Notes: a model not told the origin generated them from the letters alone. DNA of 64,000 nt from a virus (IMGVR_UViG_3300037067_018554:4060-68059), one strand, 5' to 3'; positions 2,955 to 23,446 are shown, counted from the first letter of the stretch. A program made the numbers and translations.

Positions 2955-3236
2955 ATGAATCCGATTGATTATATGAACCCAAATACTGACCCGCTTAGTC
3001 CTAACTACGATGCCAAGGCCCGACTTTATGTTAGGCTAGCTATTTTATACGAAAAGCCCAAGTCTATGGATAGCGGCGATCATCCATGGCGCCAAATATG
3101 TTACTTCCGTAGAAGTCAAGGTAATAATTGTGCACTAGTCGGGGAAATATCAAAACAACTAGCCCTGAACTCTCTCGAACCTGAGATTACGAATGTGGTT
3201 TTAGAGTGGGAAAAGCTAGGGAAACCTAATGGCTGA
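2955..3236 (+). CDS. Hypothetical protein (93 aa)
   Basis: ORF with an 8-nt overlap into the next gene, consistent with translational coupling. Confidence 0.6.
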   Translation: MNPIDYMNPNTDPLSPNYDAKARLYVRLAILYEKPKSMDSGDHPWRQICYFRRSQGNNCALVGEISKQLALNSLEPEITNVVLEWEKLGKPNG

Positions 3237-3924
3237 CGAATTAGCTAAACAAAAAATCAATCCCATATTAATGCGTATTGCCGCTGAAGGCACTAAAGAA
3301 TTAACCGAAGCAGACCGAACCCAAATTCAAAACCAACTTCGTAATTTAGAGTATGGCCATTATGCTATGGTCCCCATACATTGCCGTGGAAATGTATGTA
3401 AGTATGCTGATATCTGCCCTTTATTAAAAGCTGGCGTTAGCAGTATGGTAGGACAGCCATGCCCTCTCGAAGAACATCTGCTATATACATGGATCTCGCA
3501 TTATCGAGAATCACTTAATGTAGACCCCAAAAATGCTATAGAAATGAATTTAGTCTGCGAGCTTGCTAAAATAGAGATATATAGTGCTCGCGCCACCCAC
3601 CGAGTAGCGTCTGAAGATTTAATCATCCAGCAAGTCATTGGCGTGTCGGATAAAGGCGAGCCAATTTATAGGGAAGAGTTACACCCAATTCTTGGTTTAG
3701 CAGAAAGTCAAGACCGGCGCAAATTACGTCTCCTAGAGGCCTTCCTAGCTACTAGACAAGCACTTGCAGAGGTTGGTGGAAGTGGTCAAGGTGACCAATC
3801 TACTCATGCCGCTGAACTGGCTAATATTGTTCGTAAAGCACAAAAGAATTTGGCGGATAGAGCCAAAGATATTAAAGCCAATGCCGCTAAAGATGTAACT
3901 CCTCCTAGTCCCACCACTACATAA
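3229..3924 (+). CDS. Putative terminase small subunit-like protein with Cys cluster
   Basis: C-x4-C-x5-CP...CP cluster then a helical body (VIGVSDKGEPIYREELHP); located upstream of TerL. Function is inferred from position only. Confidence 0.45.
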   Translation: MADELAKQKINPILMRIAAEGTKELTEADRTQIQNQLRNLEYGHYAMVPIHCRGNVCKYADICPLLKAGVSSMVGQPCPLEEHLLYTWISHYRESLNVDPKNAIEMNLVCELAKIEIYSARATHRVASEDLIIQQVIGVSDKGEPIYREELHPILGLAESQDRRKLRLLEAFLATRQALAEVGGSGQGDQSTHAAELANIVRKAQKNLADRAKDIKANAAKDVTPPSPTTT

Positions 3925-3940: not shown

Positions 3941-6900
3941 ATGCTAGGTTCCAGCCGAGACATCGGGCAGGGTCCGCAAGGCCCGGGCCTAAGACCTCAA
4001 CGATCCTTCGAAAATCTTCGTTCATACCCCACTGCCGCTGCCTGGCAGCAGCCCACTTCGTCATACTTAAATCCAAACTATAAGCAACGCCGAGGCTGGG
4101 GTTATGGTCAGCCTAGTAGTTTCTCTCCTGGTATCCAGCCTTATATAATCCCAGATGCCAAAGACTATCTCCAGAATATATACAGTTATGGAGTACCTGG
4201 CTTTGTCCAAAGCAAGATAGAGGGATTACATCCAGGTGGAAGCGGTATAGGCAGAAATACTGTCCGTTCCATGACTACATTTGGTTCAGGTGTTGATATA
4301 CCTCAACTCATCAACCCATTTGAAACATACGCTTCTGATTGGAATATAGCACAACGCAAATCACTGGCAAGTAAACTACATGCCCTGTCCCGAGCAAATC
4401 TCATTTTTGTTGATACAGAAACTACAGGAGTAAAAGCACTTTATGAAAGGCCTGGTAAAGGTAAACAGTCTCTTAAAGCGGGCTCATCGGTTCTTGGTGA
4501 ACTTAACGAAATGGTAGTTAATAGCCGACATGCATTTATGTATGGCTTTTCAGATACTGCCTCTATAGATGTTCTAAAACAACGAGCTCGCCAATCTAGA
4601 GGAGCAAGGGCTTTATATAGATCAGCTGCAGAGCGACTGAGTAAATATAAAGGTGAGCGATATACTGCTACCCAGCTAGTGGACTTTATCACTAAACTGG
4701 CTGTTCCAGGTAAAAAGAATTATCTCCTCGGGCACAATTTTGCTACTTTCGATTTTGGTATGATTGCCACTAAATATGCGAGAGAAAGTGGCGACATCAC
4801 TCAGGCTGATGTTAATACAATCACATCTTTTTATGATAATCCTGCACGACAAACGTCTACCAAAATAGAAAATGCATTTGGTAGGATACGAAAAGCAACA
4901 AGTAAGGCTGCCAAAGCCATAGAAAAAAAATGGCAGGGCGCAGGCATTAGTGTTGCGGATACCCTGGGAGCTTTTGTTGATAAGGGAGCCAAGATTGTTC
5001 CTAAAGTAGCACCCGAAGTTAGTGATATAGCCTATCACTTCGCTAGTACGTATTTCCCAAATATCCAAGCCATGTATTCCAATATTAAGTCTGGGGCATA
5101 CCACTTTGCTCGAGGTAGTTCTCTAGAGGGATTGTCCTACTATGCTACTGGGAAAGTTCCCCCTAGTCTTCATGATCCACGTAAAGACTTAATAGTTAAT
5201 AAAAATATGCTAAGCCTTGTTGCCCAGAAGTCTAAACAACTTGATAAGATGATTGACGCTGGTGACGAATATGGTCTAGCTAGAGAAACAGCTAACTATC
5301 TAAAAGCCCAGCGTTATATTGCTAGCAATGTCATGAAAGCCTATGCTAAGAATACGCCCAAGTATGCTTCTGCAAAAACTGCTACCGAGATCATAGACCA
5401 AGTTTTACCAACTGTATTCAGTAGTACTAAATCGGGCTTTTTTGAAAGTCTTATAGGAAGTTTCAAAAATCTACCTACTAAATCCAAATGGATGGTAGGC
5501 GGGGCTTTGGGTATGGCCACTTGGCAAATCGGTGGGTATTTTCTTGATGGCAATACTATCGAGGGGCTACACCCAGGCAGTACTGGATATTCAGCTAGTA
5601 TTATCCCAGCCTTTACACCATTCGGGTCGGGGTTTCAGCCAAATAAAGCTTTTATGCATAGTCCCCTTATGGCATCAGCAGGAGCTCTTGGTGTAGGGCT
5701 AATAAGTTATTTTGGAACTGGAGATTTAACTGACGCTGCGCTTACAGCATCCGCCGCCTATACTGGAGCTGCTATAGGAGCTACAAGAAATAAACTATTC
5801 CAAGGATTAATGTGGGGCATGGGTATAGGGGCGGCGACAGACTATATGGTTCAAGATCACCCACTAGTCAGTGGGACTCTTGCTACTATATCTACATCTG
5901 TGGCTGCTGGTCTAGGGCTAGCTTCTTTCGCAAAAGGTGGCATGTATTACAAATCGACACTAGAAATGATAACTAACAAAGTTCCCGGAACCACTCCTGA
6001 AGCATGGGCCAAGATATTGGGAGCAGAGGGCAGAGGGGCAGGACTAGCCCATGACCCAACTAAAATGCTTCAATATCTAGCTTTTCCCCATAGCGCCAAG
6101 TTTGGTCAAATCAAGAGTGTCCTCAAAGACGTAGGTTGGAGTACTGATGCAAAGCTAGAACAGCATTTTGCGCAAATGGCTCAGCAAGGACTTCTAGAAA
6201 AAGCTAGATACCAAGCTTGGCGGGGGACTCGTGCATTAAGTGCGACTATGAAGAACCACCCTCATTTGGAGCGTATGATCAATGCCTATGTGGGTTCTCC
6301 ATCCCTTCTTGCCTTAGCTCAAAAAAATAGACACGCTGGTCTTAGTAATGCTCCTCTTCATAAAATATATGGTGCTCTTTGGCAAGACGTAGTAGAGGCT
6401 GCTCCTCTTAGTGCTGGTATCGGTGCACTTAATATGTTTTGGGAGGGATTGCATCCTGGAGGTTCAGGTCCAGGAGCAGACTCAATTCGCCAATATAGTG
6501 ACTTCGGTTCTGGACGTATTCTTGGTAAAATGGTATCCCGAGCCGAAAAACTTATGCAACAGCAGAAATGGGACAAGGAGTGGGTTAAAGCTAAATTCTT
6601 CCAAAGAAAGAAATGGTTAGAGGCCAGAGAGGAAACCTTCGGTACTCGATATGGTGTTGCTGGTACCAACAATCCTAGAACCGCCTTTGTAGAAATTGAT
6701 ATTCCATCCATACAAAGTGGATATAATAAGACTGAAGGATTGCATCCCGGCGGATCCGGTCTAGGTAAATATCAGATCATAGACTTGACAGATTTTGGTT
6801 CTGGATGGCAACTAGAATGGGTACTTGCTAAATTTGCGCAAGCCCGTAAGCGTGCACTCCTAAGACAGGTTATTGCTAAGCCATCAACAGTCAAATATGA

Positions 6901-7120
6901 TGAGGCAATAGGGTTTCTGAAAAATAAAACCCAATCCCGGCAACCAATATTTCAAAATCTGACTATGCCAGATATTGAACAAGCTGGAGCATTTGTTGAT
7001 ATGCCAATTGTTGCCCAATCTAGTGCTAGAGAAAAACTAATCCCAACTGCAGGACTAGTCAATAATGTTCTTTATGATAGAGCTATCTCACACACTAAAT
7101 ACCCCGGAAAATCCTTATAA
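3941..7120 (+). CDS. Modular putative internal/ejection polyprotein containing a DEDDh 3'-5' exonuclease domain and hydrophobic segments
   Basis: ExoI FVDTETTG (D158,E160), ExoII GHNFATFD (D271), ExoIII LHDPRKD (H411,D416); four EGLHPG-x14-FGSG motifs; Gly/Ala-rich hydrophobic helices around aa 515-660. Confidence 0.75.
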   Translation: MLGSSRDIGQGPQGPGLRPQRSFENLRSYPTAAAWQQPTSSYLNPNYKQRRGWGYGQPSSFSPGIQPYIIPDAKDYLQNIYSYGVPGFVQSKIEGLHPGGSGIGRNTVRSMTTFGSGVDIPQLINPFETYASDWNIAQRKSLASKLHALSRANLIFVDTETTGVKALYERPGKGKQSLKAGSSVLGELNEMVVNSRHAFMYGFSDTASIDVLKQRARQSRGARALYRSAAERLSKYKGERYTATQLVDFITKLAVPGKKNYLLGHNFATFDFGMIATKYARESGDITQADVNTITSFYDNPARQTSTKIENAFGRIRKATSKAAKAIEKKWQGAGISVADTLGAFVDKGAKIVPKVAPEVSDIAYHFASTYFPNIQAMYSNIKSGAYHFARGSSLEGLSYYATGKVPPSLHDPRKDLIVNKNMLSLVAQKSKQLDKMIDAGDEYGLARETANYLKAQRYIASNVMKAYAKNTPKYASAKTATEIIDQVLPTVFSSTKSGFFESLIGSFKNLPTKSKWMVGGALGMATWQIGGYFLDGNTIEGLHPGSTGYSASIIPAFTPFGSGFQPNKAFMHSPLMASAGALGVGLISYFGTGDLTDAALTASAAYTGAAIGATRNKLFQGLMWGMGIGAATDYMVQDHPLVSGTLATISTSVAAGLGLASFAKGGMYYKSTLEMITNKVPGTTPEAWAKILGAEGRGAGLAHDPTKMLQYLAFPHSAKFGQIKSVLKDVGWSTDAKLEQHFAQMAQQGLLEKARYQAWRGTRALSATMKNHPHLERMINAYVGSPSLLALAQKNRHAGLSNAPLHKIYGALWQDVVEAAPLSAGIGALNMFWEGLHPGGSGPGADSIRQYSDFGSGRILGKMVSRAEKLMQQQKWDKEWVKAKFFQRKKWLEAREETFGTRYGVAGTNNPRTAFVEIDIPSIQSGYNKTEGLHPGGSGLGKYQIIDLTDFGSGWQLEWVLAKFAQARKRALLRQVIAKPSTVKYDEAIGFLKNKTQSRQPIFQNLTMPDIEQAGAFVDMPIVAQSSAREKLIPTAGLVNNVLYDRAISHTKYPGKSL
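4220..6805 (+). repeat. Four dispersed 24-aa motifs EGLHPG-x14-FGSG
   Basis: Copies at 4220-4291, 5561-5632, 6443-6514 and 6734-6805; identical length; protein conserved while codons differ. Confidence 0.95.
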
Positions 7121-7144: not shown

Positions 7145-7723
7145 ATGAGTACGTTAGATAGTAGCCACTTTCATCAAGGTCCAAGAGTAGATATAGGCCC
7201 CCAGGAATTTAGATCCGGGTGGGAAGCGAACATAGCGCGATTATTAACATTCCTAGGAATTAAATGGGAATATGAACCTAAAAGGTTCTTCTTTCCCGGT
7301 GGGATACATTATCTACCAGACTTCCACCTTAAATCCTCTAATCCATGGGATTGTGAATGGCTTGAAGTTAAAGGTTTGTGGCGTCGGGGCGATAAAGCTA
7401 AATGTAAATGCTTTATGATCTTTTATGCAGATCAACCACTGCATGTTATTGTTAAACAAGAATACACTCAGCTGGAAAAGAAATATGGCCACTTAATACC
7501 CAATTGGGAATGGTCACATAAAAGGAGAAAGAAATGCTCTCGACGTCAGACATGCAAATCGCTGCGAATGCCGGCACCCCGAATGCAGCTATCAAAAAGA
7601 TGGCAAAGAAGAAGGGTTATCATCTTGTCGTCCCCGGTGAAAAAAAGCAGTTCCCCTCAAAACTCACTACGGGTACCACAACCTCTCAAGCAAAATATAT
7701 TCAGAAATTCGTCAACGACTTAG
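7145..7723 (+). CDS. PD-(D/E)XK endonuclease, T7 endonuclease I / resolvase-like
   Basis: FRSGWEANIAR...GIKWEYEP...YLPDF...WLEVKG pattern; the last ~70 aa overlap the next ORF and look non-homologous. Confidence 0.75.
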   Translation: MSTLDSSHFHQGPRVDIGPQEFRSGWEANIARLLTFLGIKWEYEPKRFFFPGGIHYLPDFHLKSSNPWDCEWLEVKGLWRRGDKAKCKCFMIFYADQPLHVIVKQEYTQLEKKYGHLIPNWEWSHKRRKKCSRRQTCKSLRMPAPRMQLSKRWQRRRVIILSSPVKKSSSPQNSLRVPQPLKQNIFRNSSTT

Positions 7724-7743: not shown

Positions 7744-8157
7744 ATGGCTCGTGGAGTTAATGGGTGGATAGGAGCTGGACGCCTATCTGGCAGTTTCTTA
7801 AACATGGCCAAAGGTGGTCTAGATTTTTTGACTTCCAGTAAGATGATGGCTCTTGGTTCTGCCGGTGTAGGATTAGGACTTTATTATATGGATTCGAGAG
7901 ACGGATATACTGGACTCCCGGGCATGATGGGACTTGGAGCTGCGGGACTAGTAGGTGGCCGAGCCCTATATAATTACGGAAGTGGTTTGTCTAAAAAAGC
8001 TTTGCGGTCAAAAGGTTATAGCGGTTCCATGAATCGCGGGGCTCGGAATGCTTACCGTTGGATGAAAGATGCTGGCCAAACAGCTAGAAGTGGAGTAAAC
8101 ACACGAGGTGGGTTTGCCAGAGGTTTTAGACAGGGTTATGGAAAAAGAGGGCGCTAG
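7744..8157 (+). CDS. Gly-rich basic protein with hydrophobic helices; putative internal virion/ejection protein
   Basis: SD GGAGG; MMALGSAGVGLGLYYM and MMGLGAAGLVGG segments; basic C-terminus ending KRGR. Confidence 0.65.
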   Translation: MARGVNGWIGAGRLSGSFLNMAKGGLDFLTSSKMMALGSAGVGLGLYYMDSRDGYTGLPGMMGLGAAGLVGGRALYNYGSGLSKKALRSKGYSGSMNRGARNAYRWMKDAGQTARSGVNTRGGFARGFRQGYGKRGR

Positions 8158-8163
8158 TACAAT

Positions 8164-8733
8164 ATGCAATATATAGCCGGGCCAGAAGATATCCATCAAC
8201 GCACTCAAATGAACCTAATCCAAGCTGGAGCTGGAGTATTAGGTCTTGGGTTAATGAGTCCACTTGCACGATATACCGCATGGCCAATCTTAAAAGGAGT
8301 AGCCAAAGCTGGTATTGGAACTGCAAAAGGAGCCTGGTGGTTAAGTAAGACTCTTGGTGGTGGGGTTGGCGGCCAAATAGCTGCTGAAGAAATGGGCGAG
8401 GGTATTTTAGGTTTAGCAGGACGGGTAGGTTATAATGTATTAGCAGGCGGAGTTCGTGCAGGAACAGCTATAGCGCAAATGGGTGTTGGGGCGGCCGGAA
8501 TTGGAGTTGGCCTTGGCAAAACCTTCTTGGCTCATCCAGCTATATCATCAATTGGTGTCTTGGGAGCTGCTGCCACACTGGGTACTGCAGCGGGATTTGT
8601 TGATAGAGGAGAACCCTACTATGGAGCGGGTGCGTCTAACATGACCGATATTATGGGCGGGACAACTCGATCTATTATGAACAATATGAATGCCACAGGT
8701 GATATTGTATTGGGCGCACATAGAGGACGTTAA
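8164..8733 (+). CDS. Gly/Ala-rich hydrophobic protein; putative ejection protein
   Basis: Several GxxxG-type hydrophobic helices; C-terminus MNATGDIVLGAHRGR. Confidence 0.65.
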   Translation: MQYIAGPEDIHQRTQMNLIQAGAGVLGLGLMSPLARYTAWPILKGVAKAGIGTAKGAWWLSKTLGGGVGGQIAAEEMGEGILGLAGRVGYNVLAGGVRAGTAIAQMGVGAAGIGVGLGKTFLAHPAISSIGVLGAAATLGTAAGFVDRGEPYYGAGASNMTDIMGGTTRSIMNNMNATGDIVLGAHRGR

Positions 8734-9455
8734 TGTATAATAGTAACAACTATCAATATGCAGCCGAGGAAACAAGTTCCTCGATCATGGGCTCTCTGGT
8801 TCCATTAGCTGGATATATTGGACTAGGCTATGTGCATGGAAAACTACAGAATGATGCAATTTGGAACGCCAATCGCGGTTTTAAAAAAGGCGCTTGGAGA
8901 GCTTTTAAGGGGCCGTCTAAGGATAGAAATGAACGTATTGAAGAATACGTTAAAGGGTATTGGAAAAAAAGCAAAGGAAAATACAATACCGTCAGTGCCC
9001 GTGCCCGCGAAACTTTTCAAGATGATATGTGGAAGTGGACCCGCGATCATGGTGGTGGAAGTTGGAACCCTGCCAGACCTAGACAGGCCGCGTATGTACA
9101 AGCTGCACGGCAGAAGTTTGCTCAAGGTGGAGCTACTGCCGGTTCAATGACACAGAAAGCTTTTAAATCTAAAACACGCACTGCTATGGCGAAACTCCGA
9201 CTAAGTAGACTAACGGCAGCTGGCCTAGGAGTAGCCAATTTCTTATTTATAGCACCATTATTATATGACACGGCTAAGGCAGGATATGCTGGTTTGAGAG
9301 ATGCAGGGTCCATGCTAAGATCTGCGAATATGGGCAGTATAAATTTACCACAAATGGCAGCTACTGAACGTCAGCGTGCGTTATCTGCACTACATAACAG
9401 CGAGCTTAGTGCCCGCAGCGCCCTAGGTAATGAGGCTAGTTACTACCACCGTTAG
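8733..9455 (+). CDS. Basic protein with hydrophobic helices; putative ejection protein
   Basis: TAATG coupling with the previous gene; hydrophobic LTAAGLGVANFLFIAPLLY; helical C-terminus; directly upstream of TerL. Confidence 0.65.
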   Translation: MYNSNNYQYAAEETSSSIMGSLVPLAGYIGLGYVHGKLQNDAIWNANRGFKKGAWRAFKGPSKDRNERIEEYVKGYWKKSKGKYNTVSARARETFQDDMWKWTRDHGGGSWNPARPRQAAYVQAARQKFAQGGATAGSMTQKAFKSKTRTAMAKLRLSRLTAAGLGVANFLFIAPLLYDTAKAGYAGLRDAGSMLRSANMGSINLPQMAATERQRALSALHNSELSARSALGNEASYYHR

Positions 9456-9466
9456 GACTAAATCCT

Positions 9467-11272
9467 TTGCATCCAATCTGTCAAAAATGTCTTGAAGCTA
9501 GAGAGAAGCGCTTTCGTCCTACATTGGGCGAAGGATGGGATTGTGTTAAGTGTAGTTATATTCAAGAGGATTATCTCTATGGTCTAGATAAAAACCAATA
9601 TACTGAAGAACAACTTCATATCATGGAAATCTACATGGACCCCGTGAAGTTTGCCAAGTATATGTTTGAGATTACGCTTCGCTTTTATCAAGAAGAGATG
9701 ATTCGTTGTACGGCTATTCGTAAAGTCAGTAGATGTGGACGTCGTATCGGGAAATCCTGGGTTTTAACAATCTATGCATGTTGGTTCTGTTTTACTCATA
9801 AAAATAAATACGTAATGGTTATGACTCCCCGTAAAGACCAGGGAGAAAAACTATATAATTGGATAGTGCAATGGTATAACCAATTCCCGCGCTTTAGGGA
9901 ATGTATCCGCCGTAAGGCTAAAAACCCTGGCACCGTAGAGTTTAAAAATGGCTCTACGCTATTCTTTGTTACAGCGGGATCGTCTAATAATGCCAAAGCA
10001 GGAGCTGCTCGTGGTCAAGAAGCCGATGTTATCATTTTAGACGAATCTGACTACTTAAACCCTGCTGATATTGATACTGTTTTCCCAATGCTACAGCGCA
10101 CGGATGAAACAAGTGATGAAGATAAAATTCTATGGGCTTCCTCTACGCCAAGAGGCACGAGAGAGAAATTTTATACATGGGCTCACTCGGAGCGTTTCAA
10201 AGAATTCCACTATCCTTCTTGGATGAATCCTGCCTGGGATAAGACGATGGAGGCAGAGCTTCGGGAAGAACTCAAAACCAATACCGCATGGGAACACGAG
10301 GCCGCCGCTGAGTGGGGCGAAGAGATGGAAGGAGTATTTCAACATCTCTTTGTTGATAGATCTATGAGTCACGCATATCGCTTTTTTGGAGAACAAGGAT
10401 TCTGGCCCTATGAGGAAGCTAAACGTATCCCGGGTTGTCTGTATACTATTGGTGTAGACTGGAACAGTTCACGCAATGGCGTACAGATAGTCATTGTCGA
10501 ATATAATCCAGCTCTAAAAGATGAACAGGACGAATCATCAATTAAGGGGCGTTTTCGTGTAGCCACTCGAGTTAGTATCGACGCTACCGAATTCACGCAG
10601 TTAAAGGCATGCCAAGAAATTATACGTCTAAATAAAATTTGGAAACCAATGTATATCTATGTAGACCAAGGTCATGGGTCTACACAAATAGAAGAACTAA
10701 GGCGCTATGGCTTAGATCATCCAGAGGATAACATCCTTGATAAACTCAAGCCTATCGATTTTGGCTCTACTATCGAGGTTCATGATCCCGTTAATAGAAC
10801 CGTTAATAAACGACCCATAAAGCCATTCCTGGTAGGTAATGCTGTGGAGAAATTCGAGCGAGATTTAATGATATTGAATCCAGCAGATTCTCTACTAGAA
10901 GACCAGATTCGTGCCTATACAGTAGAAAAACAAACCAGAACAGGGCAGCCGATCTATTCATCTGGCTATGATCATGCATTAGACGCTCTTATGCTAGCCC
11001 TATTAGCCTTCACTATGGAATTCACTGATCTAGGAAAACCCAAGTTCACCATAGGTCTTGAATTTGCAGAAGCATGGCGCACTATCGGAGTTGCTCCTGA
11101 ACCTTCTCCTGAAGAACGATTAGCCCGAGAACAAGGAATGATCCCTGTACCTACGCGAGATATTGATAAAATATCAAAAGGGGAGTTTTTTGCACCTGCT
11201 CCTATTTGGGGAACAGGCAAAGGTAGTACCCAGAAATACTGGAACCGTCAAGTGGAAAGCCGGAGAATATAA
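9467..11272 (+). CDS. terL: Terminase large subunit
   Basis: Walker A RCGRRIGKS, Walker B VIILDESD, coupling motif ASSTP, RNase H-like nuclease IGVDWN / YVDQGHG / DHALDA; N-terminal CxxC...CxxC. Confidence 0.95.
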   Translation: MHPICQKCLEAREKRFRPTLGEGWDCVKCSYIQEDYLYGLDKNQYTEEQLHIMEIYMDPVKFAKYMFEITLRFYQEEMIRCTAIRKVSRCGRRIGKSWVLTIYACWFCFTHKNKYVMVMTPRKDQGEKLYNWIVQWYNQFPRFRECIRRKAKNPGTVEFKNGSTLFFVTAGSSNNAKAGAARGQEADVIILDESDYLNPADIDTVFPMLQRTDETSDEDKILWASSTPRGTREKFYTWAHSERFKEFHYPSWMNPAWDKTMEAELREELKTNTAWEHEAAAEWGEEMEGVFQHLFVDRSMSHAYRFFGEQGFWPYEEAKRIPGCLYTIGVDWNSSRNGVQIVIVEYNPALKDEQDESSIKGRFRVATRVSIDATEFTQLKACQEIIRLNKIWKPMYIYVDQGHGSTQIEELRRYGLDHPEDNILDKLKPIDFGSTIEVHDPVNRTVNKRPIKPFLVGNAVEKFERDLMILNPADSLLEDQIRAYTVEKQTRTGQPIYSSGYDHALDALMLALLAFTMEFTDLGKPKFTIGLEFAEAWRTIGVAPEPSPEERLAREQGMIPVPTRDIDKISKGEFFAPAPIWGTGKGSTQKYWNRQVESRRI

Positions 11273-13053
11273 TGAGCAATGACTTCTTCAAAAATAGAGT
11301 GCCAGAATTCCAACCCAGGAAAATAACCCAAGGGGCAGATCTATTAGCTCCATCAATTCCTAATCCTGAACCTATTCCTCCAGCAGCATCATCCACGCAA
11401 GATGAGGTTGTTACATTACTTGAAGAATGGAATAAAACAACACAACGCCTCGATCATCTAGGTACTATCCTGGACGCTCAAGGTAACTTAATGAATATCT
11501 GCCGCAATTTACCTCCAGTGATTGCCGAAAGATATCTTAAACATAAACTACCAGAAGAGTCTTGTTGGGCATTCTATAAGCGTATGGTGGCATTAGCACA
11601 ACAACATCCTGAGATAGACTGGAACTCTACGTTTGCGGAAGATGTAGCCAATCAAACACATCCTAGTGATGCATCAGTCACTGGCGACTTCGATATGATA
11701 CCCGAGGTAGATGAAAATGGAGCTACAACTCCCGATTTTAACCAGAACCCCGGTAAAATCAAACTCCTATTGATGCTGTTTCTTGCAATCCTCAAGTGGA
11801 TAGTAAGTGGAATTATTGCAGTTGCGTTCGCACCATTCCAGTGGTTAGAAAATAAATGGAATTCTGTAGAGATTCTAGGAGCTCGTTTACCACAAATCCA
11901 CTTTGTTGCTGAATTTAAAACTAAAGCTATTAAATGGGCAGAAGATCTTATATCGAGATGGACAAAACAGTATAATTTAAATCTTACACAAGATGTTGAA
12001 CGGATGGATGCCACTATCTTTGTAGCACACATTGAAGAATCTGTGGCTAAGTCAGATGCTCAGTACTGGCCCGAGTCTGCTTTGCTCTACTCCAAATATT
12101 ACGCATTAAGACGCAACCATGAACAAGGTGAATCTGTTATACGCAAATTTGCTGCAGATGTTCAAAATACCGGAGTCAATACTCTAGAAGCAGTAGCCCA
12201 AACAGCCACTACTGCCTACCAGATGCCAAAAGATTTATATGATTTGTTCACTCTCCAGAAAGACTATACTGAAACTTCAATCTATGATATGGAAACCCTT
12301 CTGACTAGGCAGTTTGGAGACAATCTCTTTTGCTGTATATTTAGACTACTGGGTTCTTACCAAGTTAAAATGCTGAAAGCAGCTAAACTATTACTTAAGC
12401 TATCTCTTAATAGACATGCCATTTATATCACCACTTTAGGAACTATGCTGAATAATGTCCTGGTTACCGTGATACGAGGTGTGCTCCTCGAAATATTCAA
12501 GACAGTATATGCAGCTATTAATATCGTTAATAATGAGATTAAGCAATACCTTTTTGGACGAGTCCAGTCTAGCTTAGATGACCGTATTTCTGGAGCGAGT
12601 AAGTGCATTTCGTACGAATTGTTTATCCAAACATTGTTACAATTTATTAATGAACTAGAGAATTCTATCTTGGACCTAGTCCTGGATTTTCGGAACAGTC
12701 TGAACCAGCAAAACGAATATACCCGCCTTTATATAGGCGCTCTTACACAAAGTAAGTATATTAAACGAATGCTGCGACTGATCGATATTATCCTAGAGGC
12801 TAAATCCAGGGGCGAACTCTGTAAAACATCGGCCGTTCCTACAGATCAAGAAATACTAGATCTGTGGCCTGTCATTCAGGATGACCCGGACTTTGGTGGG
12901 CTAAGTCCAACCGGACTTCCCGGTACTACCCCTCCAGGGGGAGACACAGAGTCCAGCCACCGGGTAATCTTTGATGACTGCTTACAGAAAGTTCCCCGCG
13001 AAGATCTCGAAATGGTGATGAACTGGATCACTAGATTACAGGACAATAAATAA
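11272..13053 (+). CDS. Hypothetical protein with a predicted transmembrane helix, between TerL and portal
   Basis: 593-aa ORF coupled at both ends by TAATG overlaps; hydrophobic LLLMLFLAILKWIVSGIIAVAFAPF. Confidence 0.8.
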   Translation: MSNDFFKNRVPEFQPRKITQGADLLAPSIPNPEPIPPAASSTQDEVVTLLEEWNKTTQRLDHLGTILDAQGNLMNICRNLPPVIAERYLKHKLPEESCWAFYKRMVALAQQHPEIDWNSTFAEDVANQTHPSDASVTGDFDMIPEVDENGATTPDFNQNPGKIKLLLMLFLAILKWIVSGIIAVAFAPFQWLENKWNSVEILGARLPQIHFVAEFKTKAIKWAEDLISRWTKQYNLNLTQDVERMDATIFVAHIEESVAKSDAQYWPESALLYSKYYALRRNHEQGESVIRKFAADVQNTGVNTLEAVAQTATTAYQMPKDLYDLFTLQKDYTETSIYDMETLLTRQFGDNLFCCIFRLLGSYQVKMLKAAKLLLKLSLNRHAIYITTLGTMLNNVLVTVIRGVLLEIFKTVYAAINIVNNEIKQYLFGRVQSSLDDRISGASKCISYELFIQTLLQFINELENSILDLVLDFRNSLNQQNEYTRLYIGALTQSKYIKRMLRLIDIILEAKSRGELCKTSAVPTDQEILDLWPVIQDDPDFGGLSPTGLPGTTPPGGDTESSHRVIFDDCLQKVPREDLEMVMNWITRLQDNK

Positions 13054-15161
13054 TGAGCTTCCTCTCAAACCTATTCTCTGCTTTTGGTAGTAAAAAGGTG
13101 GTGGACGCTCCGTCCCCTGCCGGCTCTAAAAGTAGCCAGCTACCAACGGTTGTATTTATTCCTGTAGCTAATGCTCCCCCCAGTCGAGCCATTGCTAGCC
13201 AGGAGCTTGACTACAACTTAGCAGTTTTGGACCCAGTAGTAGATACTGAAAGTATTGTATTCCAAACAATTAGTAAAATCGTCGAACGCATGTTTAATAG
13301 TGGATGCAACTTTGTCTCCAGTGATCCAAAAGCTTTAGAGTATATCCGCCGCAGATTTTATGAGTTCTCCATTGTTACCAATATCCCCACTAATGTTCTT
13401 CTTGAACAAGCTGCATGGGATACCATTTTATATTCCAATGGCTATCTAGTAAAAGTTAGAGATCAAGATTCTTCTAGCGGGAAACCCTGGAACGACAATG
13501 ACGACGAGGACCGAGAACCAATTGCGGCCCTTATCCGTACAGACCCATCCGCAGTGGTGCCTCACAAAAACAAACGTGGTCTTATTGATTATTATGAGCT
13601 TAAAGAAACTATTACTATTGCCGGTGGTGGCGGGAATCAAAAAGCACAGCGCATTAAACCTAAAGATATTCTACATATTTATGCTTATAAGCGGGGGCGC
13701 TATGCACAAGGTACGCCATCTTTATGGCCCGTACTCCAGGATATAAGAACCTTAAGACATATCGAAGAAAACGTAGACTTATTGGTTCACAAACATATCT
13801 TCCCATTATACCAATATATCGTAGGGTTAGATGATGCGCCAGCTCGTCCAGAAGAGATCGAGTATATTAAACAAAAAATTCAAGAGATGCCGCCACAAGG
13901 CGCCTTCGTAACTCCAGAACGTCATAAGGTGGTCGTTATTGGAGCCGAAGGTGAAGCTCTTGATGTATCAAAATATCTTGAACACTTTATGCGCCGCGTT
14001 CTTATGGGAACAGGTCTTGGTGAAGTCTCGTTTGGCGTAGGCAATGGAGCCAACAGAGCTACTGCAGAAGTTATTGATCGAGCACTAATTGAGCGCGCTA
14101 AATATTTCCAGAAGCTTTTATGTATCTTCTTCAATGAACAACTCATACCCGAGTTGCTAGCTGAAGGTGGCTATGATATCTATAACTTTGGCAAAACCCC
14201 TGACGTAGAACTCAAGTTTGCTGAAGTAGACTTTGATGCTAAGATTAAGAAAGAAAATCACTATATTAACCTCTTTAACAATAATGGGATTACAGAAAAT
14301 GAGATGCGTGAAGGTCTTGGCCGGGACGTTATTCCTCCTACGGGGCCAGAACGGGAATTACTTAAGTGGGCTCTCTACAATGTACCGGCCATGGAGATGG
14401 AACAAAAGCTTAAAGAAGCTGCTGCTAACACAACCAAAAATGCTGATCAGCCTAAAAATCAGCATGGCGAACAAGGCAGTCCTAAGCGCAATAGTTCCTT
14501 AGAGGTTAATGATAGTTATCAGCCCTCACAACTAGATGAGCAAACTATCGCTGCCTTTAAAGCTGCGCAAACCGATACTATAAACATTATTAAGCAGGCG
14601 TTGGCTCAAGCCAGATCATTAAATCCCCAAGATTTATTAGGTATACAAACAGTTATCGGCGTAGCAGAAAGCCAAATTAAAACAGATAGCACACCTTATA
14701 TCGAACAGGCCTTCTACCAAGGATTGCGCCAAGGCGGTGTGCGGGACCATGTGCAACATATTGAGGATATTGTTAAAACTGAAATCATACCCGTGCATGA
14801 CAGGCTCGTACAGAAAACTATGACAAATATAAGAAAAGATGTTATTAATCTACTAGAGAGACATTCTACCCTGACCCAAGACACTCCAGTGTCAGCGACA
14901 GCTCTTTTTGATGTTAAAAAGCACTATATCACTGAAACAAACAGTGTGGGTCTCTCTAAAGCTAGGCATTATGGTGCGATCCTAGCAGCTAGATTGTCTG
15001 GAAAAGATAAAGTAGCAGTAGTGGCTAATAAAGACTGCAAGATTTGCAAAGACCATCACGGTCAAATTCTAGATACGCGGTTAATAGATAGTGACACTTT
15101 ACCTGGGTACCACGGAAATTGCTCTTGTACACTAGGACCAGCACCGGAGAATATTAAGTGA
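13053..15161 (+). CDS. Portal protein with C-terminal head-morphogenesis (Mu gpF / SPP1 gp7-like) extension
   Basis: Position between TerL and protease; portal-like ILHI...GTPSL..V and GNGANRATA segments; C-terminal CKICKDHHG...LPGYHGNCSC. Confidence 0.85.
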   Translation: MSFLSNLFSAFGSKKVVDAPSPAGSKSSQLPTVVFIPVANAPPSRAIASQELDYNLAVLDPVVDTESIVFQTISKIVERMFNSGCNFVSSDPKALEYIRRRFYEFSIVTNIPTNVLLEQAAWDTILYSNGYLVKVRDQDSSSGKPWNDNDDEDREPIAALIRTDPSAVVPHKNKRGLIDYYELKETITIAGGGGNQKAQRIKPKDILHIYAYKRGRYAQGTPSLWPVLQDIRTLRHIEENVDLLVHKHIFPLYQYIVGLDDAPARPEEIEYIKQKIQEMPPQGAFVTPERHKVVVIGAEGEALDVSKYLEHFMRRVLMGTGLGEVSFGVGNGANRATAEVIDRALIERAKYFQKLLCIFFNEQLIPELLAEGGYDIYNFGKTPDVELKFAEVDFDAKIKKENHYINLFNNNGITENEMREGLGRDVIPPTGPERELLKWALYNVPAMEMEQKLKEAAANTTKNADQPKNQHGEQGSPKRNSSLEVNDSYQPSQLDEQTIAAFKAAQTDTINIIKQALAQARSLNPQDLLGIQTVIGVAESQIKTDSTPYIEQAFYQGLRQGGVRDHVQHIEDIVKTEIIPVHDRLVQKTMTNIRKDVINLLERHSTLTQDTPVSATALFDVKKHYITETNSVGLSKARHYGAILAARLSGKDKVAVVANKDCKICKDHHGQILDTRLIDSDTLPGYHGNCSCTLGPAPENIK

Positions 15162-16741
15162 AGAAACACGCACGTATTTTTGATTCCTTCATTATTCCTG
15201 AAACACAGATTGAAGGACATGACAAAGTCCGCGAACGGCTAACCAATATGATAGCCGATTCGTCCAAAAGTGCCGAGCGCGTTTCCCTGCTTTCTGAAGC
15301 AATTGTTACACATGCCGGGATGGTAAATCGCAACTGGGGATATTATCCCCCAGAGAAAATTCGGAACTCAGCTAAGCATTGGATTGAACCTTATAGACGT
15401 CCTGTGCTTTACAACCACGATGAATATGACAAGCCTCGTGGTAGAGTAATGGGCTCAGTCTATAAAGATATTACCCCGGCTTTAGCGCCTAAAGACGTTA
15501 AGAGATCAGTCTTCCGGGATGGGTTTCAGTATAGAGGATTAGGATATCTACAGAACTTGCTAGATGTATCCGATCCAGAAACAGTAGCCGGCATTCTCGA
15601 TGGTAGATTGTCTACCGTATCCGTCTCAGGTGAGACTGATGAATTAAAGTGTTCCGTCTGTGGCCAAGATTGGTTAACAGATGGTAGATGTGAACACCGA
15701 TTTGGTAATGAGTATCAAATCGAAGACTCAGAAGAGATGGCACTAGCATACTTTATAGCTGGTAATTTCATCTGGGATGAATTATCTTTTGTGAATACCC
15801 CGGCGGATCCGTTTGCAATGGTTGTCAACCCCGAGGTAACTGCCACAGCAAAAGATAAGGTACTTGAGATTTATCAAGTAAAAGATTGTACAGTAGATAA
15901 AGAAGCAATAGTAGATAAAGACCTAAGTCGGTTATTCAAGATGTATGCAGTAAATCTAGAAAGCCGACAAGTGGTAAATCTAAGCGACTCACATGTGCTT
16001 GATAAACTCGAGTCAATCTATGGCAAAAGGATTTTCGCTATGAGCAAACCAGCAGAAGAGAAGCCGGTGGCACCTGCTCCAGTAAAGGATGAGGCTGTTG
16101 TTGAAGCTCCCGCTTCTACACCAGCTCCAGAAGCACCTGCCGCACCAGCTCCAGAAGCTCCTGCCGCACCAGCTCCAGAAGCTCCTGCAGCGGAGGCACC
16201 CGCGTCTCCCGTAACTCCAGAAACTCCCGCAGTAGCGGAAGAGAAACCCGCAGAGGCTGCTCCAGCCGATGCAGCACATAAGGAAACTGATGAATTAAAA
16301 GCAGCCCTAGAAACACTTAAGGCTGAGCTAGATAAGGCAAAGAAAGATCTAACCGATGCTACTACCAAGTCTACAGAATTAACTGATCAATTAGTGGCAG
16401 TACAGGTTGGAGTTAAACGTGAAAAGATTAATCGTGCTTTTGATATGATTAATGCTTCTCAGTTAGATAAAGTAACATCTGAAGATCGCGAGAAGTTTAT
16501 CACCGACAATCTTACCAAAGCGGATGCTGATATCGAAGCTCTGGTTAAGGATGCCGCAGCTAAGCAGGCAGAAGCCTCCAGCAAACTTCCTTCTATCAAA
16601 GACCAGGAAAATGCAGGAGTTGAGGAAGCACCCGAAATCAACGAAGAGGAAATTATTGATCGCTTTGTTGATAGCATGTCAGAAGAGGACATGATCGGTT
16701 ATGTATTGCGCGGGCGAATTGTTCCCGAAGCATACGAATAA
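15158..16741 (+). CDS. Prohead protease fused to scaffolding domain
   Basis: THAG...PVLYNHD...GRV, TVSVSG, ELSFVNTPAD protease-type motifs; CSVCG..CEH Zn loop; Pro/Ala/Glu-rich linker and acidic coiled-coil C-terminus. Confidence 0.85.
   Translation: MKKHARIFDSFIIPETQIEGHDKVRERLTNMIADSSKSAERVSLLSEAIVTHAGMVNRNWGYYPPEKIRNSAKHWIEPYRRPVLYNHDEYDKPRGRVMGSVYKDITPALAPKDVKRSVFRDGFQYRGLGYLQNLLDVSDPETVAGILDGRLSTVSVSGETDELKCSVCGQDWLTDGRCEHRFGNEYQIEDSEEMALAYFIAGNFIWDELSFVNTPADPFAMVVNPEVTATAKDKVLEIYQVKDCTVDKEAIVDKDLSRLFKMYAVNLESRQVVNLSDSHVLDKLESIYGKRIFAMSKPAEEKPVAPAPVKDEAVVEAPASTPAPEAPAAPAPEAPAAPAPEAPAAEAPASPVTPETPAVAEEKPAEAAPADAAHKETDELKAALETLKAELDKAKKDLTDATTKSTELTDQLVAVQVGVKREKINRAFDMINASQLDKVTSEDREKFITDNLTKADADIEALVKDAAAKQAEASSKLPSIKDQENAGVEEAPEINEEEIIDRFVDSMSEEDMIGYVLRGRIVPEAYE
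16121..16192 (+). repeat. 24-bp tandem repeat x3 encoding PAPEAPAA
   Basis: CCAGCTCCAGAAGC(A/T)CCTGC(C/A)GC(A/G) at 16121, 16145 and 16169. Confidence 0.95.
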
Positions 16742-17668: not shown

Positions 17669-18898
17669 ATGTCCAATGAATTGAAGAGTCGGGTCGCGGA
17701 TATCCTGAAGGCATTCGCGCGGAATGGTCAGGTCGAAAAGGATAAGAAGGTGAAGCTGAAAGACCTTCTTACTACTGCCGACGCTACCATCGCAATGTCC
17801 AAGACGATCTCCACGATCATCAAGGAAGCCATCGAGCCCAAGCTTGTAATCACCCCAATGTTCCAGAAGATTCGTCTGGACTCGGGTACAAGCATTGAGT
17901 TCCCTTCGGCCGGCGCTATGGAAGCCGCTGATATTCCAGAAGGTGGCGAGTACCCCGAGAAAAGCATTGATCTCGACGGTGGAACTGTACTCAACGTAAA
18001 GACCACGAAAGTCGGTCTTCGCGTTGCCATCACCGAAGAAATGATCACTGAGTCGCGGTGGGACCTCGTTGCTATGAATCTTCGCGCAGCTGGTCGTGCA
18101 CTTGCACGGCACAAAGAAGTCAAATGCGCTAATCTGTTCGCCACTATGGGCAACAAGATCTTCGACAACCTCGAAGTATCTGCTGCTGTAGTCGGCGCAA
18201 CCACAGGCCGTGGTATTGCTGGAGCAATCAACGGCGGCATGCACATGGATGACATTTTTGAGCTCCTGGCCTATCTCATGAACTCAGGGTTCAATGGTGA
18301 CACTCTTTTGATGCACCCTCTTTCCTGGATCACTTTTGCAAAGGATCCTATTCTTCGTGAGTTAGCTTGGATGCAGTCCCGCTCCCTCGTGGGTGGCTCG
18401 GTATCCGGCGCTCCTGGCCAGACTGGCTGGGACAAGTCTCCTAACCTAGGTTATCAGACTATGGCCCCCATGCTGACCAACACTGCCACGAACATCCCTG
18501 CCGGGTTGTTCCCATGGCCCCTTAAGGTTCTCATTAGCCCCTACGTTCGCTATACCCCTAAGGGTTCTGCTGTACGTACCATGGCTGGTGCAGTTCCTGG
18601 TGCAGTAACTAACGTAACTGATGGTGATTCGTTAGCTCTCGCACCTCTAACAGACATCTACGCAATTGACTCTGCAGAAGTAGGTGCTCTGGTAGAAAAG
18701 GAATCCATTAGCACGGAGGACTTTAACGACCCTTACCGTGATATTCGCAATACGAAGATCCGCGAGCGTTATGGCTTGGCCCTCTTAAACCAGGGTAAGG
18801 CTGTAGTAGTCGCCCGCAACGTGGTTCTCAGGAACACATACGTGTTCGATAATACGAACACTGTGTCGAGCCTAAGTGAGCCCACGCGCAATATCTAA
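17669..18898 (+). CDS. Major capsid protein (HK97 fold)
   Basis: Strong SD AGGAGG; DIPEGGEYPE, KVGLRVAITEEMI, ALARHKE and RERYGLALL segments typical of HK97-fold MCPs; followed by a strong terminator. Confidence 0.92.
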   Translation: MSNELKSRVADILKAFARNGQVEKDKKVKLKDLLTTADATIAMSKTISTIIKEAIEPKLVITPMFQKIRLDSGTSIEFPSAGAMEAADIPEGGEYPEKSIDLDGGTVLNVKTTKVGLRVAITEEMITESRWDLVAMNLRAAGRALARHKEVKCANLFATMGNKIFDNLEVSAAVVGATTGRGIAGAINGGMHMDDIFELLAYLMNSGFNGDTLLMHPLSWITFAKDPILRELAWMQSRSLVGGSVSGAPGQTGWDKSPNLGYQTMAPMLTNTATNIPAGLFPWPLKVLISPYVRYTPKGSAVRTMAGAVPGAVTNVTDGDSLALAPLTDIYAIDSAEVGALVEKESISTEDFNDPYRDIRNTKIRERYGLALLNQGKAVVVARNVVLRNTYVFDNTNTVSSLSEPTRNI

Positions 18899-22006: not shown

Positions 22007-23446
22007 ATGAGCTTAACTCAATTCCTGCCAGCATTCGAAACTGAACTGGTAGACGGCGGCTTAATGGTAGAAGACAACACTATTATCAGTGATGTCGTTC
22101 TACTTATTGGGTTCTCCGCAATTGGTAACACAGCAGATGCCAATTATATCAATACCCCTATCAAAATCAACCGCCCTGATGCTGCAGATTCGATTTATGG
22201 AACAGCGCAGAATGGTTCATCCCTTACTCGTGGTGTTTATGAAGCACGCAATGGACAAGCCAACCAGATTGTAGCGGTTAGTTTAGGTCCTTGGGGCTCA
22301 GCTACCTATACTAACCCAACCACGGGTGTAGTATCCCAAATTTTCACACTCAATCCAGGTGGATCTGCTACCAAACCATCAGATTATACCATCAATACGA
22401 CCAACTACTATGCAGCTCTTGAGAATCTATATGACTTGCTAGAAAATAGCACAGCGGCCGACATTATAGTCCCTATCGACGCCGACGCTTTCGATACTGT
22501 TACCGTTAATACTCGTACAACTAACTTTGCCTATCAGCTAGCTTTCCATTTGGCTGATATGTCTACAGAAGATAACGAGTGTATGGGGATGATCAAAGTA
22601 CATCCCTGCGGTTCTGGTACGCTTACCGTAGTCCGCGACTATATCGGCACTGAACCAAGCAAGAATGCCCTAGGCCAGATCGATATCAATGGTGACGGTC
22701 TATTAGGTGAAGAGTGGGCCATGGGAGCATCGGGTACTACATTCGCTGCGGTCGCTCCTGGTTATTTCCGTAGCAACTTCGCTACTACTTCTAACTATTA
22801 TGGTCTTCCTCCTGTTGCTAGCAATGAAATCGAGGTAGACAGGCGCAACAACCCAGTAGATATCGGGAAATACATCTCTGTTGTAGCTGCAGAGCCTATT
22901 TTCCCTGCAGGAGCATATGCTTCTGGTTACTCGGGCACGGGAGAGTGCATCTACGCTGGTGTCGTGTCAAGACTACCAGTCAAGTCTGCACCAACAGGCA
23001 AGATCGTACCTTCTATTACTGGACTACTCTATGATCTTTCCAAGAGTCAGTTAGAGTCTATGACTGAGGCTCGTTATGTAACCTTCCGCAGAAATCGGCG
23101 CGGCATTGTAGTAACCGATGGTTGCACTGCTTCTAGAGCAACTTCGGACTACAATCGTCTTTCGACTATGCGGATCGTGATGGCGCTCTCGAAGGTCCTA
23201 CGCAACGTAGGCGAGCTCTATATTGGTGAGGGGAACTCTCCTGAAATGCTCAACTCCCTCAAGTCGGCCATCAAAGCTAAGTTCGAGGCCTTTGTCAAGG
23301 ATGGAGCAATTAAGAACTACGTGTTCGATGTAGTTCAAAGCTCCATCGACGCAGCTGCCGGTATCGTGAGCATTCCTATCGAAATCGTTCCTGCCCTTGA
23401 GGTACGGCGAATCAAACTCGTCGTTAACCTCAGGTCAGCTCTATAA
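22007..23446 (+). CDS. Contractile tail sheath protein
   Basis: Strong SD; C-terminal sheath domain DYNRLSTMRIV...IEIVPALEVRRIKLVV; precedes the tube gene. Confidence 0.92.
   Translation: MSLTQFLPAFETELVDGGLMVEDNTIISDVVLLIGFSAIGNTADANYINTPIKINRPDAADSIYGTAQNGSSLTRGVYEARNGQANQIVAVSLGPWGSATYTNPTTGVVSQIFTLNPGGSATKPSDYTINTTNYYAALENLYDLLENSTAADIIVPIDADAFDTVTVNTRTTNFAYQLAFHLADMSTEDNECMGMIKVHPCGSGTLTVVRDYIGTEPSKNALGQIDINGDGLLGEEWAMGASGTTFAAVAPGYFRSNFATTSNYYGLPPVASNEIEVDRRNNPVDIGKYISVVAAEPIFPAGAYASGYSGTGECIYAGVVSRLPVKSAPTGKIVPSITGLLYDLSKSQLESMTEARYVTFRRNRRGIVVTDGCTASRATSDYNRLSTMRIVMALSKVLRNVGELYIGEGNSPEMLNSLKSAIKAKFEAFVKDGAIKNYVFDVVQSSIDAAAGIVSIPIEIVPALEVRRIKLVVNLRSAL

Follow-up and report, generated by a model that had tools for sequence, protein, structure and literature searches.

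One gene in a 64,000-nt stretch of viral DNA (IMGVR_UViG_3300037067_018554:4060-68059), which as a whole is called the window in the following, codes for a chain of dissimilar protein modules separated by four copies of a single conserved peptide. This peptide, here called the joint, recurs in about a hundred related phage proteins, and wherever modules are added, dropped or swapped among related phages, it marks the boundary. Sequence comparison gives good support to the view that interchangeable cargo is connected here by a fixed peptide. The function of the joint that is best supported by these comparisons is that of a processing site, with a likely boundary at its invariant F-G-S|G; a function as loading tag or docking site is possible.

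A fixed peptide in a modular protein

The gene extends over the open reading frame (ORF) 3941..7120 of the window. Its features are given below with window coordinates, strand and amino acid (aa) positions; P and L numbers are our handles for proteins and loci, and pLDDT is the AlphaFold confidence value (predicted local distance difference test).

3941..7120, + strand: ORF of the multi-module ('polyvalent') protein, 1059 aa; 44% identity to its orthologue P0002 across 91% of the length; synteny kept in eleven independent loci found through the motif
3941..4207, + strand (aa 1-89): N-terminal leader rich in Pro, Gly and Gln, predicted to be disordered (pLDDT 29-35); 66% identical to P0002
4208..4294, + strand (aa 90-118): joint 1, with EGLHPG...FGSG at 4220..4291; profile E 1.2e-19
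4328..5500, + strand (aa ~130-520): cargo domain predicted to be a DEDDh 3'-5' exonuclease; it includes a long helical insert and has helices at its C-terminus; from motifs, model, Foldseek and PHROG
5546..5638, + strand (aa 536-566): joint 2, core at 5561..5632; from motif and profile; preceded by a hydrophobic helix (aa 513-535)
5639..6436, + strand: fast-evolving module, 28% identical to P0002, made up of a Gly/Ala-rich hydrophobic block (aa 567-700, pLDDT 25-35) and a helical region (aa 701-832, pLDDT 50-70)
6437..6517, + strand (aa 833-859): joint 3, core at 6443..6514; from motif and profile
6518..6721, + strand (aa 860-927): basic helical module with predicted helices at 861-874 and 879-905; 57% identical to P0002
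6722..6808, + strand (aa 928-956): joint 4, core at 6734..6805; profile E 1.5e-20; of the four the one nearest to the family consensus
6965..7114, + strand (aa 1009-1058): family-wide C-terminal tail, ...PTAGLVNNVL...HTKYPGKSL; from the tail profile

A regular expression finds exactly four EGLHPG...FGSG copies, at aa 94, 541, 835 and 932 and each with a spacer of 14 residues, just as a preliminary description of this DNA had reported. Judged from the protein's own composition, approximately 1e-9 exact matches would be expected by chance, and each copy scores between E 1e-19 and 1e-20 against the motif profile. No further EGLHPG-x14-FGSG copy was found in the other frames of the window (six frames) or in the remainder of the 68-kb contig. 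The public gene call (P0001, 949 aa) begins at Met111, inside joint 1, and therefore misses the first copy. Since aa 1-89 are 66% identical to the orthologue, the longer ORF is taken to be the translated one; no Shine-Dalgarno-like sequence was seen ahead of its ATG at 3941. The gene call of another relative, P0003, likewise starts within a joint (M-S-M-I-R-S-M-T-A-F-G-S).

Over 72 nt the four copies are 49–64% identical at the nucleotide level, with no exact run longer than 11 nt, and 9–11 of the 12–16 residues shared between copies are encoded by different codons. The codon divergence noted earlier is thus real, and it means that the peptide, not the DNA, is what is kept. Exact runs this short also rule out DNA recombination between the copies as the reason for their upkeep. 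Each copy retains its own variable residues in the orthologue P0002, without concerted evolution or homogenisation within the gene. The segments between the copies are indeed unrelated to each other, comprising the exonuclease, the Gly/Ala-rich hydrophobic block, the basic helix and the C-terminal module. One recognisable enzyme, the exonuclease, stands beside four non-enzymatic modules. A leader resembling that of the window protein was also seen in P0014, P0047 and P0095.

Judged by its catalytic motifs and predicted fold, the segment at aa ~130-520 is an intact DEDDh exonuclease. Three homologues keep the motifs DTETTG, GHNxxxFD and HDPRxD unchanged, and the catalytic residues, which are all present (Exo I D158/E160, Exo II N266...D271, Exo III H411...D416), are equally invariant. 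AlphaFold predicts an RNase H-like exonuclease fold with pLDDT mostly >85, and Foldseek relates it to TREX1 and the exonuclease domain of RB69/T4 polymerase with a probability of 0.9–1.0, at an E value of only ~0.01 with the whole chain as query. The sole library match of the domain is PHROG 192 (E 4e-4), with no match in Pfam or NCBIfam, whereas its relatives P0011 and P0013 do match PF00929 / DnaQ models. The hydrophobic block, helical region, basic helix and C-terminal module have no match in Pfam, NCBIfam or PHROGs.

Profile A2, built from eight copies, was scored against 1.84 billion representative proteins. This search yielded 96 protein clusters at E<=1e-3, of which 32 reached E<=1e-10, mostly of 600–1800 residues and with 1–6 matched stretches each; all of them stem from uncultured phages. 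A word-index search with A3 returned 21 proteins, for which precomputed Pfam matches to SNase, ABC1, protein kinase, APH and RNase_T are on record. Iterated locally, the profile identifies 254 copies, distributed over 98 proteins.

The conservation of the joint was calculated from 240 well-scoring copies. Within F-G-S the Phe and the Gly are present in 100% and the Ser in 99% of the copies, and [TS] two residues before the Phe in 99%. The first Gly (94%), Ile (82%), Leu (80%), Asn (77%) and Glu (77%) come next, the Glu being replaced by Asp, Pro, Gln or Ser in the other copies. This gives a core [ST]-[DE]-F-G-S-G and the whole form (FSG[KR]DDx)YNxIEGL[HP/RH]G...[IV]Rxx[ST][DE]FGSG[WY]. Two types of joint are often found together in one protein: type A, EGLHPGSxGxGxxx[IV]Rxx[ST]DFGSG, with a spacer of 14, and type B, EGL[RK]HGGxAxxxRxxLTDFGSG, with a spacer of 12. 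The fixed spacing originally described therefore holds for the window protein, while in the relatives the spacer is mostly 14 or 12, with a range of ~12–16. In the same way the core was correctly recognised, but the conserved element is longer, covering 29 profile columns and often 40–45 aa where the upstream extension FSG[KR]DDxYNTIEG is present, as it is on many copies.

In the full-length AlphaFold model (44-sequence alignment) all four joints have pLDDT <60, and an isolated joint of 63 residues (25-sequence alignment) reached 59. Both models show, at this low confidence, a 9-residue helix between stretches of coil, and the four copies do not pack together. The joint is thus probably a linear peptide of 29–45 residues and not a folded domain; the low pLDDT is weak evidence for this, in agreement with the unrelated spacing and flanks. 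No model in Pfam, NCBIfam or PHROGs covers the joint, a profile search of the PDB with it found no chain, and querying the ESM Atlas with aa 820-965 yielded nothing usable. A degenerate DNA pattern matched once in a bacterial metagenome-assembled genome (L011); no motif protein exists there, and the hit is due to chance. A literature search on joint peptide motifs returned only irrelevant papers and one on phage polyprotein cargo none. As far as we found, such a grammar of junction peptides in polyvalent-type phage proteins has not been described.

For the comparison of architectures, the proteins were cut at their joints and the trimmed segments clustered under a 60% coverage rule. This resulted in 116 module clusters and in 81 distinct architectures among the 98 proteins. 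One exonuclease type always comes first and the kinase type is mostly last; the modules M2, M3, M4, M6 and M7 (Cas4-like, SNase, WIN-type exonuclease and two of no known kind) occur at several positions. For instance, P0010 is arranged as exonuclease / joint / SNase / joint / APH-like kinase / joint / protein kinase, P0013 as DnaQ-like exonuclease / joint / Cas4-like nuclease / joint, and the L008 protein as exonuclease / joint / SNase / joint, the latter two with further parts following, and in the L004 protein a kinase is located after the third joint. Up to four enzymes are found in one chain. A module with an HExxH motif of the form xIRHERxH is present in 22 of the 98 members. It recurs with xIRHERQH[FIT]Y in P0003, P0024, P0039, P0047, P0094, P0095 and others, and is a putative zincin peptidase with no Pfam match. 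The cargo does vary, then, as had been proposed: the motif separates different enzyme modules in about a hundred relatives. The alternative outcome, copies that form one repeat domain between invariant flanks, is not what we see, for the flanks vary and AlphaFold shows no common fold.

The same is evident in pairwise comparisons of the window protein. Against P0002 the joints are 69–81% identical, the exonuclease 43%, the hydrophobic block 28% and the C-terminus 18%, and homology stops right after joint 4. In P0002, the closest relative, a different module with HELVH replaces the C-terminal module and the tail. Against P0003 homology spans the exonuclease up to the FGSG of joint 2, is lost, and is back at joint 3; HExxH modules stand there in place of the hydrophobic block and helical region. 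Between phages whose large terminases (TerL) are 30–34% identical, the joints are still 50–66% identical. Going by these sequences, the conservation exceeds what a co-evolving phage partner would be expected to allow and suits an intrinsic chemistry or a very conserved partner.

Gene order around the motif gene

The window is part of a 68-kb IMG/VR viral contig, rated 28% complete by CheckV, and encodes a contractile-tail virion module with terminase, portal, protease/scaffold, capsid and sheath. By terminase, the nearest cultured phages are Moorella phage MTATph1 (37% TerL identity) and Bacillus phage 0305phi8-36 (27%). The window phage is an uncultured giant contractile-tailed phage and a distant relative of the latter. 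The genes next to the motif gene and in the virion block are as follows.

3229..3924, + strand: gp112-like protein of 231 aa with four invariant Cys (C52, C57, C63, C78); phmmer E 5.6e-19 to 0305phi8-36 gp112
7145..7723, + strand: endonuclease I / Holliday-junction resolvase-like gene, an optional neighbour; PHROG 9019, E 5.5e-19; Pfam PF05367, E 5e-5, below the curated cutoff
7744..8157, 8164..8733 and 8733..9455, + strand: three small glycine-zipper / hydrophobic ORFs with conserved C-terminal tails; homologues lie between motif gene and TerL in related loci
9467..11272, + strand: large terminase, TerL; PHROG 2, E 5e-32
13053..15161, + strand: portal; PHROG 9232, E 5e-38
15158..16741, + strand: fusion of prohead protease and scaffold, candidate for the processing enzyme; phmmer E 4.8e-26 to 0305phi8-36 gp123 'protease/scaffold'; PHROG 18299, E 7e-5
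17669..18898, + strand: major capsid protein; PHROG 3922, E 1.7e-20
22007..23446: sheath

Eleven independent loci were found through the motif, and they share the order gp112-like gene, motif gene, small glycine-rich ORFs and, where the contig reaches that far, TerL; some continue beyond TerL to portal and protease. The gp112-like gene immediately precedes the motif gene, or is at most a few hundred bases away from it, wherever the contig covers that side; in L005 two small ORFs are found in between. The gp112-like protein of the window, for which there is no relative in Pfam or PDB, is possibly a small terminase. The endonuclease I-like neighbour occurs, among the related loci, in L002 and L015 only. 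When searches for related loci were made with P0030, P0090 and P0067, which are short proteins or have an N-terminal joint, none was found.

In 0305phi8-36 the genes at this position include gp113, gp114 and gp116, annotated as virion proteins by mass spectrometry; the comparative paper on this phage is silent on gp112–gp116. The tail of 8733..9455 is homologous to the tail of gp115 (hhalign 94%, E 1e-7). That of 8164..8733 weakly resembles the gp114 tail (...GD[IL]V[LF].[AM]H..R). A profile scan detected no joint in 0305phi8-36 or MTATph1.

Between the window phage and L002, TerL, portal and the gp112-like protein are 81–88% identical, the small ORFs 52–56% and the motif protein 44%. The motif protein therefore evolves fast compared with its neighbours, as host-facing proteins do. 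Just upstream of the packaging block, at 1437-2897, a tubulin/PhuZ-like GTPase is encoded (PHROG 4733, E 6.5e-7) which is 96% identical in L002. In several loci TerL measures 1040–1111 residues or is split into two ORFs, compared to ~600 residues in the window (L007:7333-10668, L021:1-3120, L025:15128-18298, L008:11940-15915), which suggests an intein or another insertion.

Module boundaries and possible functions of the joint

The position at which a module begins can be read from the joint-less protein of L024 (IMGVR_UViG_3300033388_005265). At the same locus, 9998-10924, this contig encodes a PD-(D/E)xK-like protein of 308 aa which ends in the family tail and matches residues 277-580 of P0091 with 87% identity; it represents a minimal form of the locus. 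At its N-terminus, MAGWRR lines up with ...FGS|GWRG in the second joint of P0091. We also mapped the boundary in 16 proteins whose first module has internal homologues elsewhere, and in 10 of these residue 1 is located within -12 to +10 residues of the Ser of FGS (P0031 +2, compared with 17 internal homologues; P0013 +1; P0011 +3; L024 -1). The invariance of FGS, the L024 alignment and the mapped starts place the boundary, and probably a cut, at F-G-S|G and not after the Glu. P0091 looks as if a joint-kinase-joint cassette had entered the L024 gene between two GW[KR]R-like stretches.

A second constant element is the C-terminal tail, whose profile matches the extreme C-terminus of ~90 of 101 family members. 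It is ~40 residues long, with the consensus ...KRNKKF..S..[AT]VG[IL]GLR.AHN.G[KR]GH..F.S... and a WIN subtype ...PTAGLVNxVL...H..Y.GKS. In all fetched loci the tail profile has no match beyond the motif proteins and the joint-less protein of L024, and every match is C-terminal; the tail was noted in the window and in L004, L005, L007, L008, L015, L016, L019, L021, L024 and L025. It comes after the last module, in the place where a joint follows every other module, and might be the actual head-loading signal. The main tail type (34 of 98) ends with H-x-x-[FY]-x-S-T plus 2–8 residues, which recalls the H-S-D-F-G-S-G of the joint and has a background frequency of 2.8%. Hypothetically, a cut of the chain at FGS|G would leave a similar peptide at the end of all products.

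From these data we favour a reading which, taken as a whole, falls just short of an even chance: the protein would be a packaged and delivered 'enzyme train' that is cut at or beside the F-G-S|G of its joints. The chain of the window protein would run from the disordered leader over joint 1, the DEDDh exonuclease with its hydrophobic helix, joint 2, the hydrophobic block, joint 3, the basic helix and joint 4 to the C-terminal module with the family tail. It would be loaded into the head together with other products of the gene block and then delivered to the host. Cleavage at each joint would release modules with an N-terminus like that of their free-standing relatives and with a C-terminal joint remnant in the position of the family tail. 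Autocatalysis at Gly-Ser, an HK97/P2-type prohead protease and the optional HExxH module are candidate cutting agents. Because the homology to the virion proteins of 0305phi8-36 is weak, we infer packaging of the motif protein from its position and by analogy.

Several observations weigh against this reading. A tblastn search of 50,697 records of cultured phages with the window protein, P0040 and P0012 gave no match. Even at a relaxed threshold the motif is missing from the capsid, portal, protease and scaffold ORFs of the window, which does not fit a shared prohead-protease site, given that in T4 and phiKZ one and the same site is found in capsid as well as cargo proteins. A conserved peptide of 29–45 residues far exceeds what a protease needs and argues for binding besides or instead of cutting. 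The HExxH module, besides being restricted to the 22 members, is absent from the window protein and from any ORF of the window, and was hence set aside as a universal protease. When the small ORFs are compared with the proven virion proteins gp113, gp114 and gp116, only gp114 matches, and weakly (8164..8733, E 0.007); their clear match is gp115, which has no virion flag in the record. The boundary mapping locates the starts of modules, not a broken bond, and some first-position N-termini may be gene-calling artefacts, as those of P0001 and P0003 are. P0067, P0074, P0091, P0007 and P0042 as called begin with a joint and P0008 finishes with one, which may be true gene ends or truncated calls. 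Homology between joint and tail was also considered, but the profile comparison covers 8 columns at E 0.024 and is not convincing.

The joint might instead remain uncut and act as a docking peptide, which we regard as possible though rather unlikely. It would bind a partner in the prohead (scaffold, inner face of the capsid, portal) or the neighbouring glycine-zipper proteins, and so serve as a repeated loading tag tethering the chain. A long peptide of 29–45 aa that appears unfolded alone and has a short amphipathic helix does resemble peptides which fold on binding, and it is more conserved than a cut site requires. In loci reaching beyond the motif gene the small hydrophobic ORFs co-occur, and the C-terminal tail, with its VGIGLR-like stretch, sits where the loading peptides of encapsulin cargo sit. 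However, a phage partner that is only ~30% identical between lineages should make the peptide drift, and no drift is seen. The first module never bears a joint, so that a rule of one tag per cargo fails, and 0305phi8-36 as well as L024 keep the neighbouring genes without any joint.

We consider it unlikely that the joint is an autonomous processing element which needs no dedicated protease, i.e. a self-cleaving peptide or an element of chain separation at the ribosome. Such a peptide could use an N-to-O acyl shift at the invariant Gly-Ser, with a nearby His and Asp assisting, and its extreme conservation would in that case be due to chemistry or to a universal partner and not to a phage protein.

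A membrane-proximal or translocation element, which together with the hydrophobic helix often found ahead of it would organise the ejected chain at the host membrane or allow the chain to travel unfolded through the tail, without cutting or capsid docking, seems improbable. A transmembrane-like hydrophobic 17-mer lies within 45 residues upstream of 25% of the joints, compared to 4% of random windows, the acidic FSG[KR]DD stretch comes after the helix, and the neighbouring genes code for glycine-zipper proteins. Yet three quarters of the joints have no hydrophobic helix, alternating helices would put nucleases and kinases on both sides of the membrane, and the joint itself has no sequence sign of contact with lipid or a pore.

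The preliminary description had drawn on T4 gp21 and phiKZ gp175, and by this analogy a prohead protease would cut after the Glu of EGLHPG. In this form the analogy is not supported and we think there is little chance that it is right. The Glu is present in all eight copies of the window phage and its closest relative, and a cut after Glu is the rule in T4 (L/I-x-E), phiKZ (S/A/G-x-E) and SPN3US (A-x-E) (PMC5694885). Over the 240 copies, though, it falls far behind the F-G-S, and the residue at P3 is Lys, Thr, Phe or Pro, not the Leu/Ile or Ser/Ala/Gly which those proteases need. The protease of the window groups with 0305phi8-36 gp123, which its record annotates as HK97 gp4 / P2 gpO-like, and no other head protein of the window has the motif. 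Free-standing modules begin after FGS, ~20 residues downstream of the Glu.

An action of the joint during translation, by which the ribosome would release one module and continue as at the 2A peptides of eukaryotic viruses, no protease being involved, is very improbable. Conservation far above that of phage proteins would suit a universal partner such as the ribosome, and a length of ~25–30 residues together with a Pro-Gly element is loosely reminiscent of 2A and arrest peptides; but the signature NPG|P (D-x-E-x-N-P-G|P) is absent, H-P-G being followed by G or S, the H-P of type A becomes R-H in type B, and no such mechanism is known in bacteria. Scarcely credible, finally, is that the four similar stretches are units of an ordinary structural repeat domain or functionless remnants of a recent duplication, given that they lie 70–450 residues apart with unrelated folds between them, are not packed together in the low-confidence model, have diverged codons, keep each copy's own flavour in the orthologue and belong to a peptide retained in 96 protein clusters whose flanks differ.

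If the joints serve as signals for processing or loading, large phages would build and re-equip an injected enzyme kit from one gene, in which a joint-flanked cassette would be all that is needed to bring in a new nuclease or kinase; this would also give a handle on the host functions which these uncultured phages attack first. That the joint keeps 50–80% identity while the terminase falls to 30% is unusual for phage proteins and points to a strong constraint. Joint and tail could be used to annotate cargo modules in metagenomic phages and to delimit uncharacterised domains, as with the 116 module clusters. Should its action be confirmed, the joint could become a tool for packaging or separating proteins. 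If it works autonomously, bacteria would have a portable 'cut here' tag, on which a phage system that loads any enzyme into a capsid could be based.

Comparison with known systems

The internal proteins and Alt of T4, with their capsid targeting sequence, and the inner-head and ejection proteins of phiKZ and SPN3US enter the prohead by way of a short peptide, undergo trimming by the head protease and are ejected along with the DNA. Their tag is N-terminal, occurs once per protein and has a three-residue site ending in Glu but is otherwise poorly conserved, and each cargo has a separate gene (PMC5694885). The joint differs from it in being internal and repeated, in its 29–45 residues with an invariant F-G-S and in connecting cargo within one chain, and the protease of the window is of a different lineage. 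Typical features of the T4 system are absent here: there is no N-terminal propeptide of 10–20 residues on each cargo, the first module having no joint, and no invariant Glu site, the Glu being present in 77% of the copies with a variable P3 and the invariant F-G-S following 20 residues downstream.

MARTX toxins and viral polyproteins likewise string interchangeable effector modules with recognisable junctions into one chain, so that one gene provides many deliverables. They carry their own protease (the cysteine protease domain of MARTX, viral 3C/NS3) and have short, weakly conserved sites, whereas the motif family has no universal protease module. In polymorphic toxins, pre-toxin motifs (VENN of CdiA, PxxxxDPxGL of Rhs) mark the point of cargo exchange, and the one of Rhs is also autoproteolytic. 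These motifs occur once, before a single C-terminal toxin and in secreted bacterial proteins, in contrast to the joint with up to six copies per chain, its place in a phage head-gene block and no sequence similarity to them. All of these junctions are functional analogies only. Encapsulin cargo-loading peptides are short and C-terminal and direct enzymes inside an HK97-fold shell. The family tail is C-terminal too and rich in Gly and hydrophobic residues, while the joints are internal and not terminal.

The closest concept is that of polyvalent proteins (Iyer, Burroughs, Anand, de Souza, Aravind 2017, PMC5512222), in which many conflict-type domains are combined in one protein of a phage or conjugative element that is predicted to be packaged, delivered and possibly processed; a cassette analogy to polymorphic toxins is drawn in that paper. 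In line with that concept, the motif family has unrelated nuclease, kinase and zincin-like HExxH modules in one chain, shows cassette-like recombination and is encoded by phages beside the portal-terminase genes. The relatives have kinase, SNase, Cas4-like and DEDD matches, together with the HExxH module (22 of 98, no Pfam match), a repertoire that may overlap with that of other polyvalent proteins; the window protein itself has one recognisable enzyme only. Whereas PMC5512222 describes no conserved inter-domain peptide (the word 'linker' is absent) and ties processing to MPTase (zincin) domains, 76 of the 98 motif-family members lack such a module, and the family stands apart by its fixed joint and C-terminal tail and by its constant place between a gp112-like gene and TerL. 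The motif family thus fits the polyvalent-protein concept, with an added junction grammar, and would extend this concept by a grammar that is concrete and testable.

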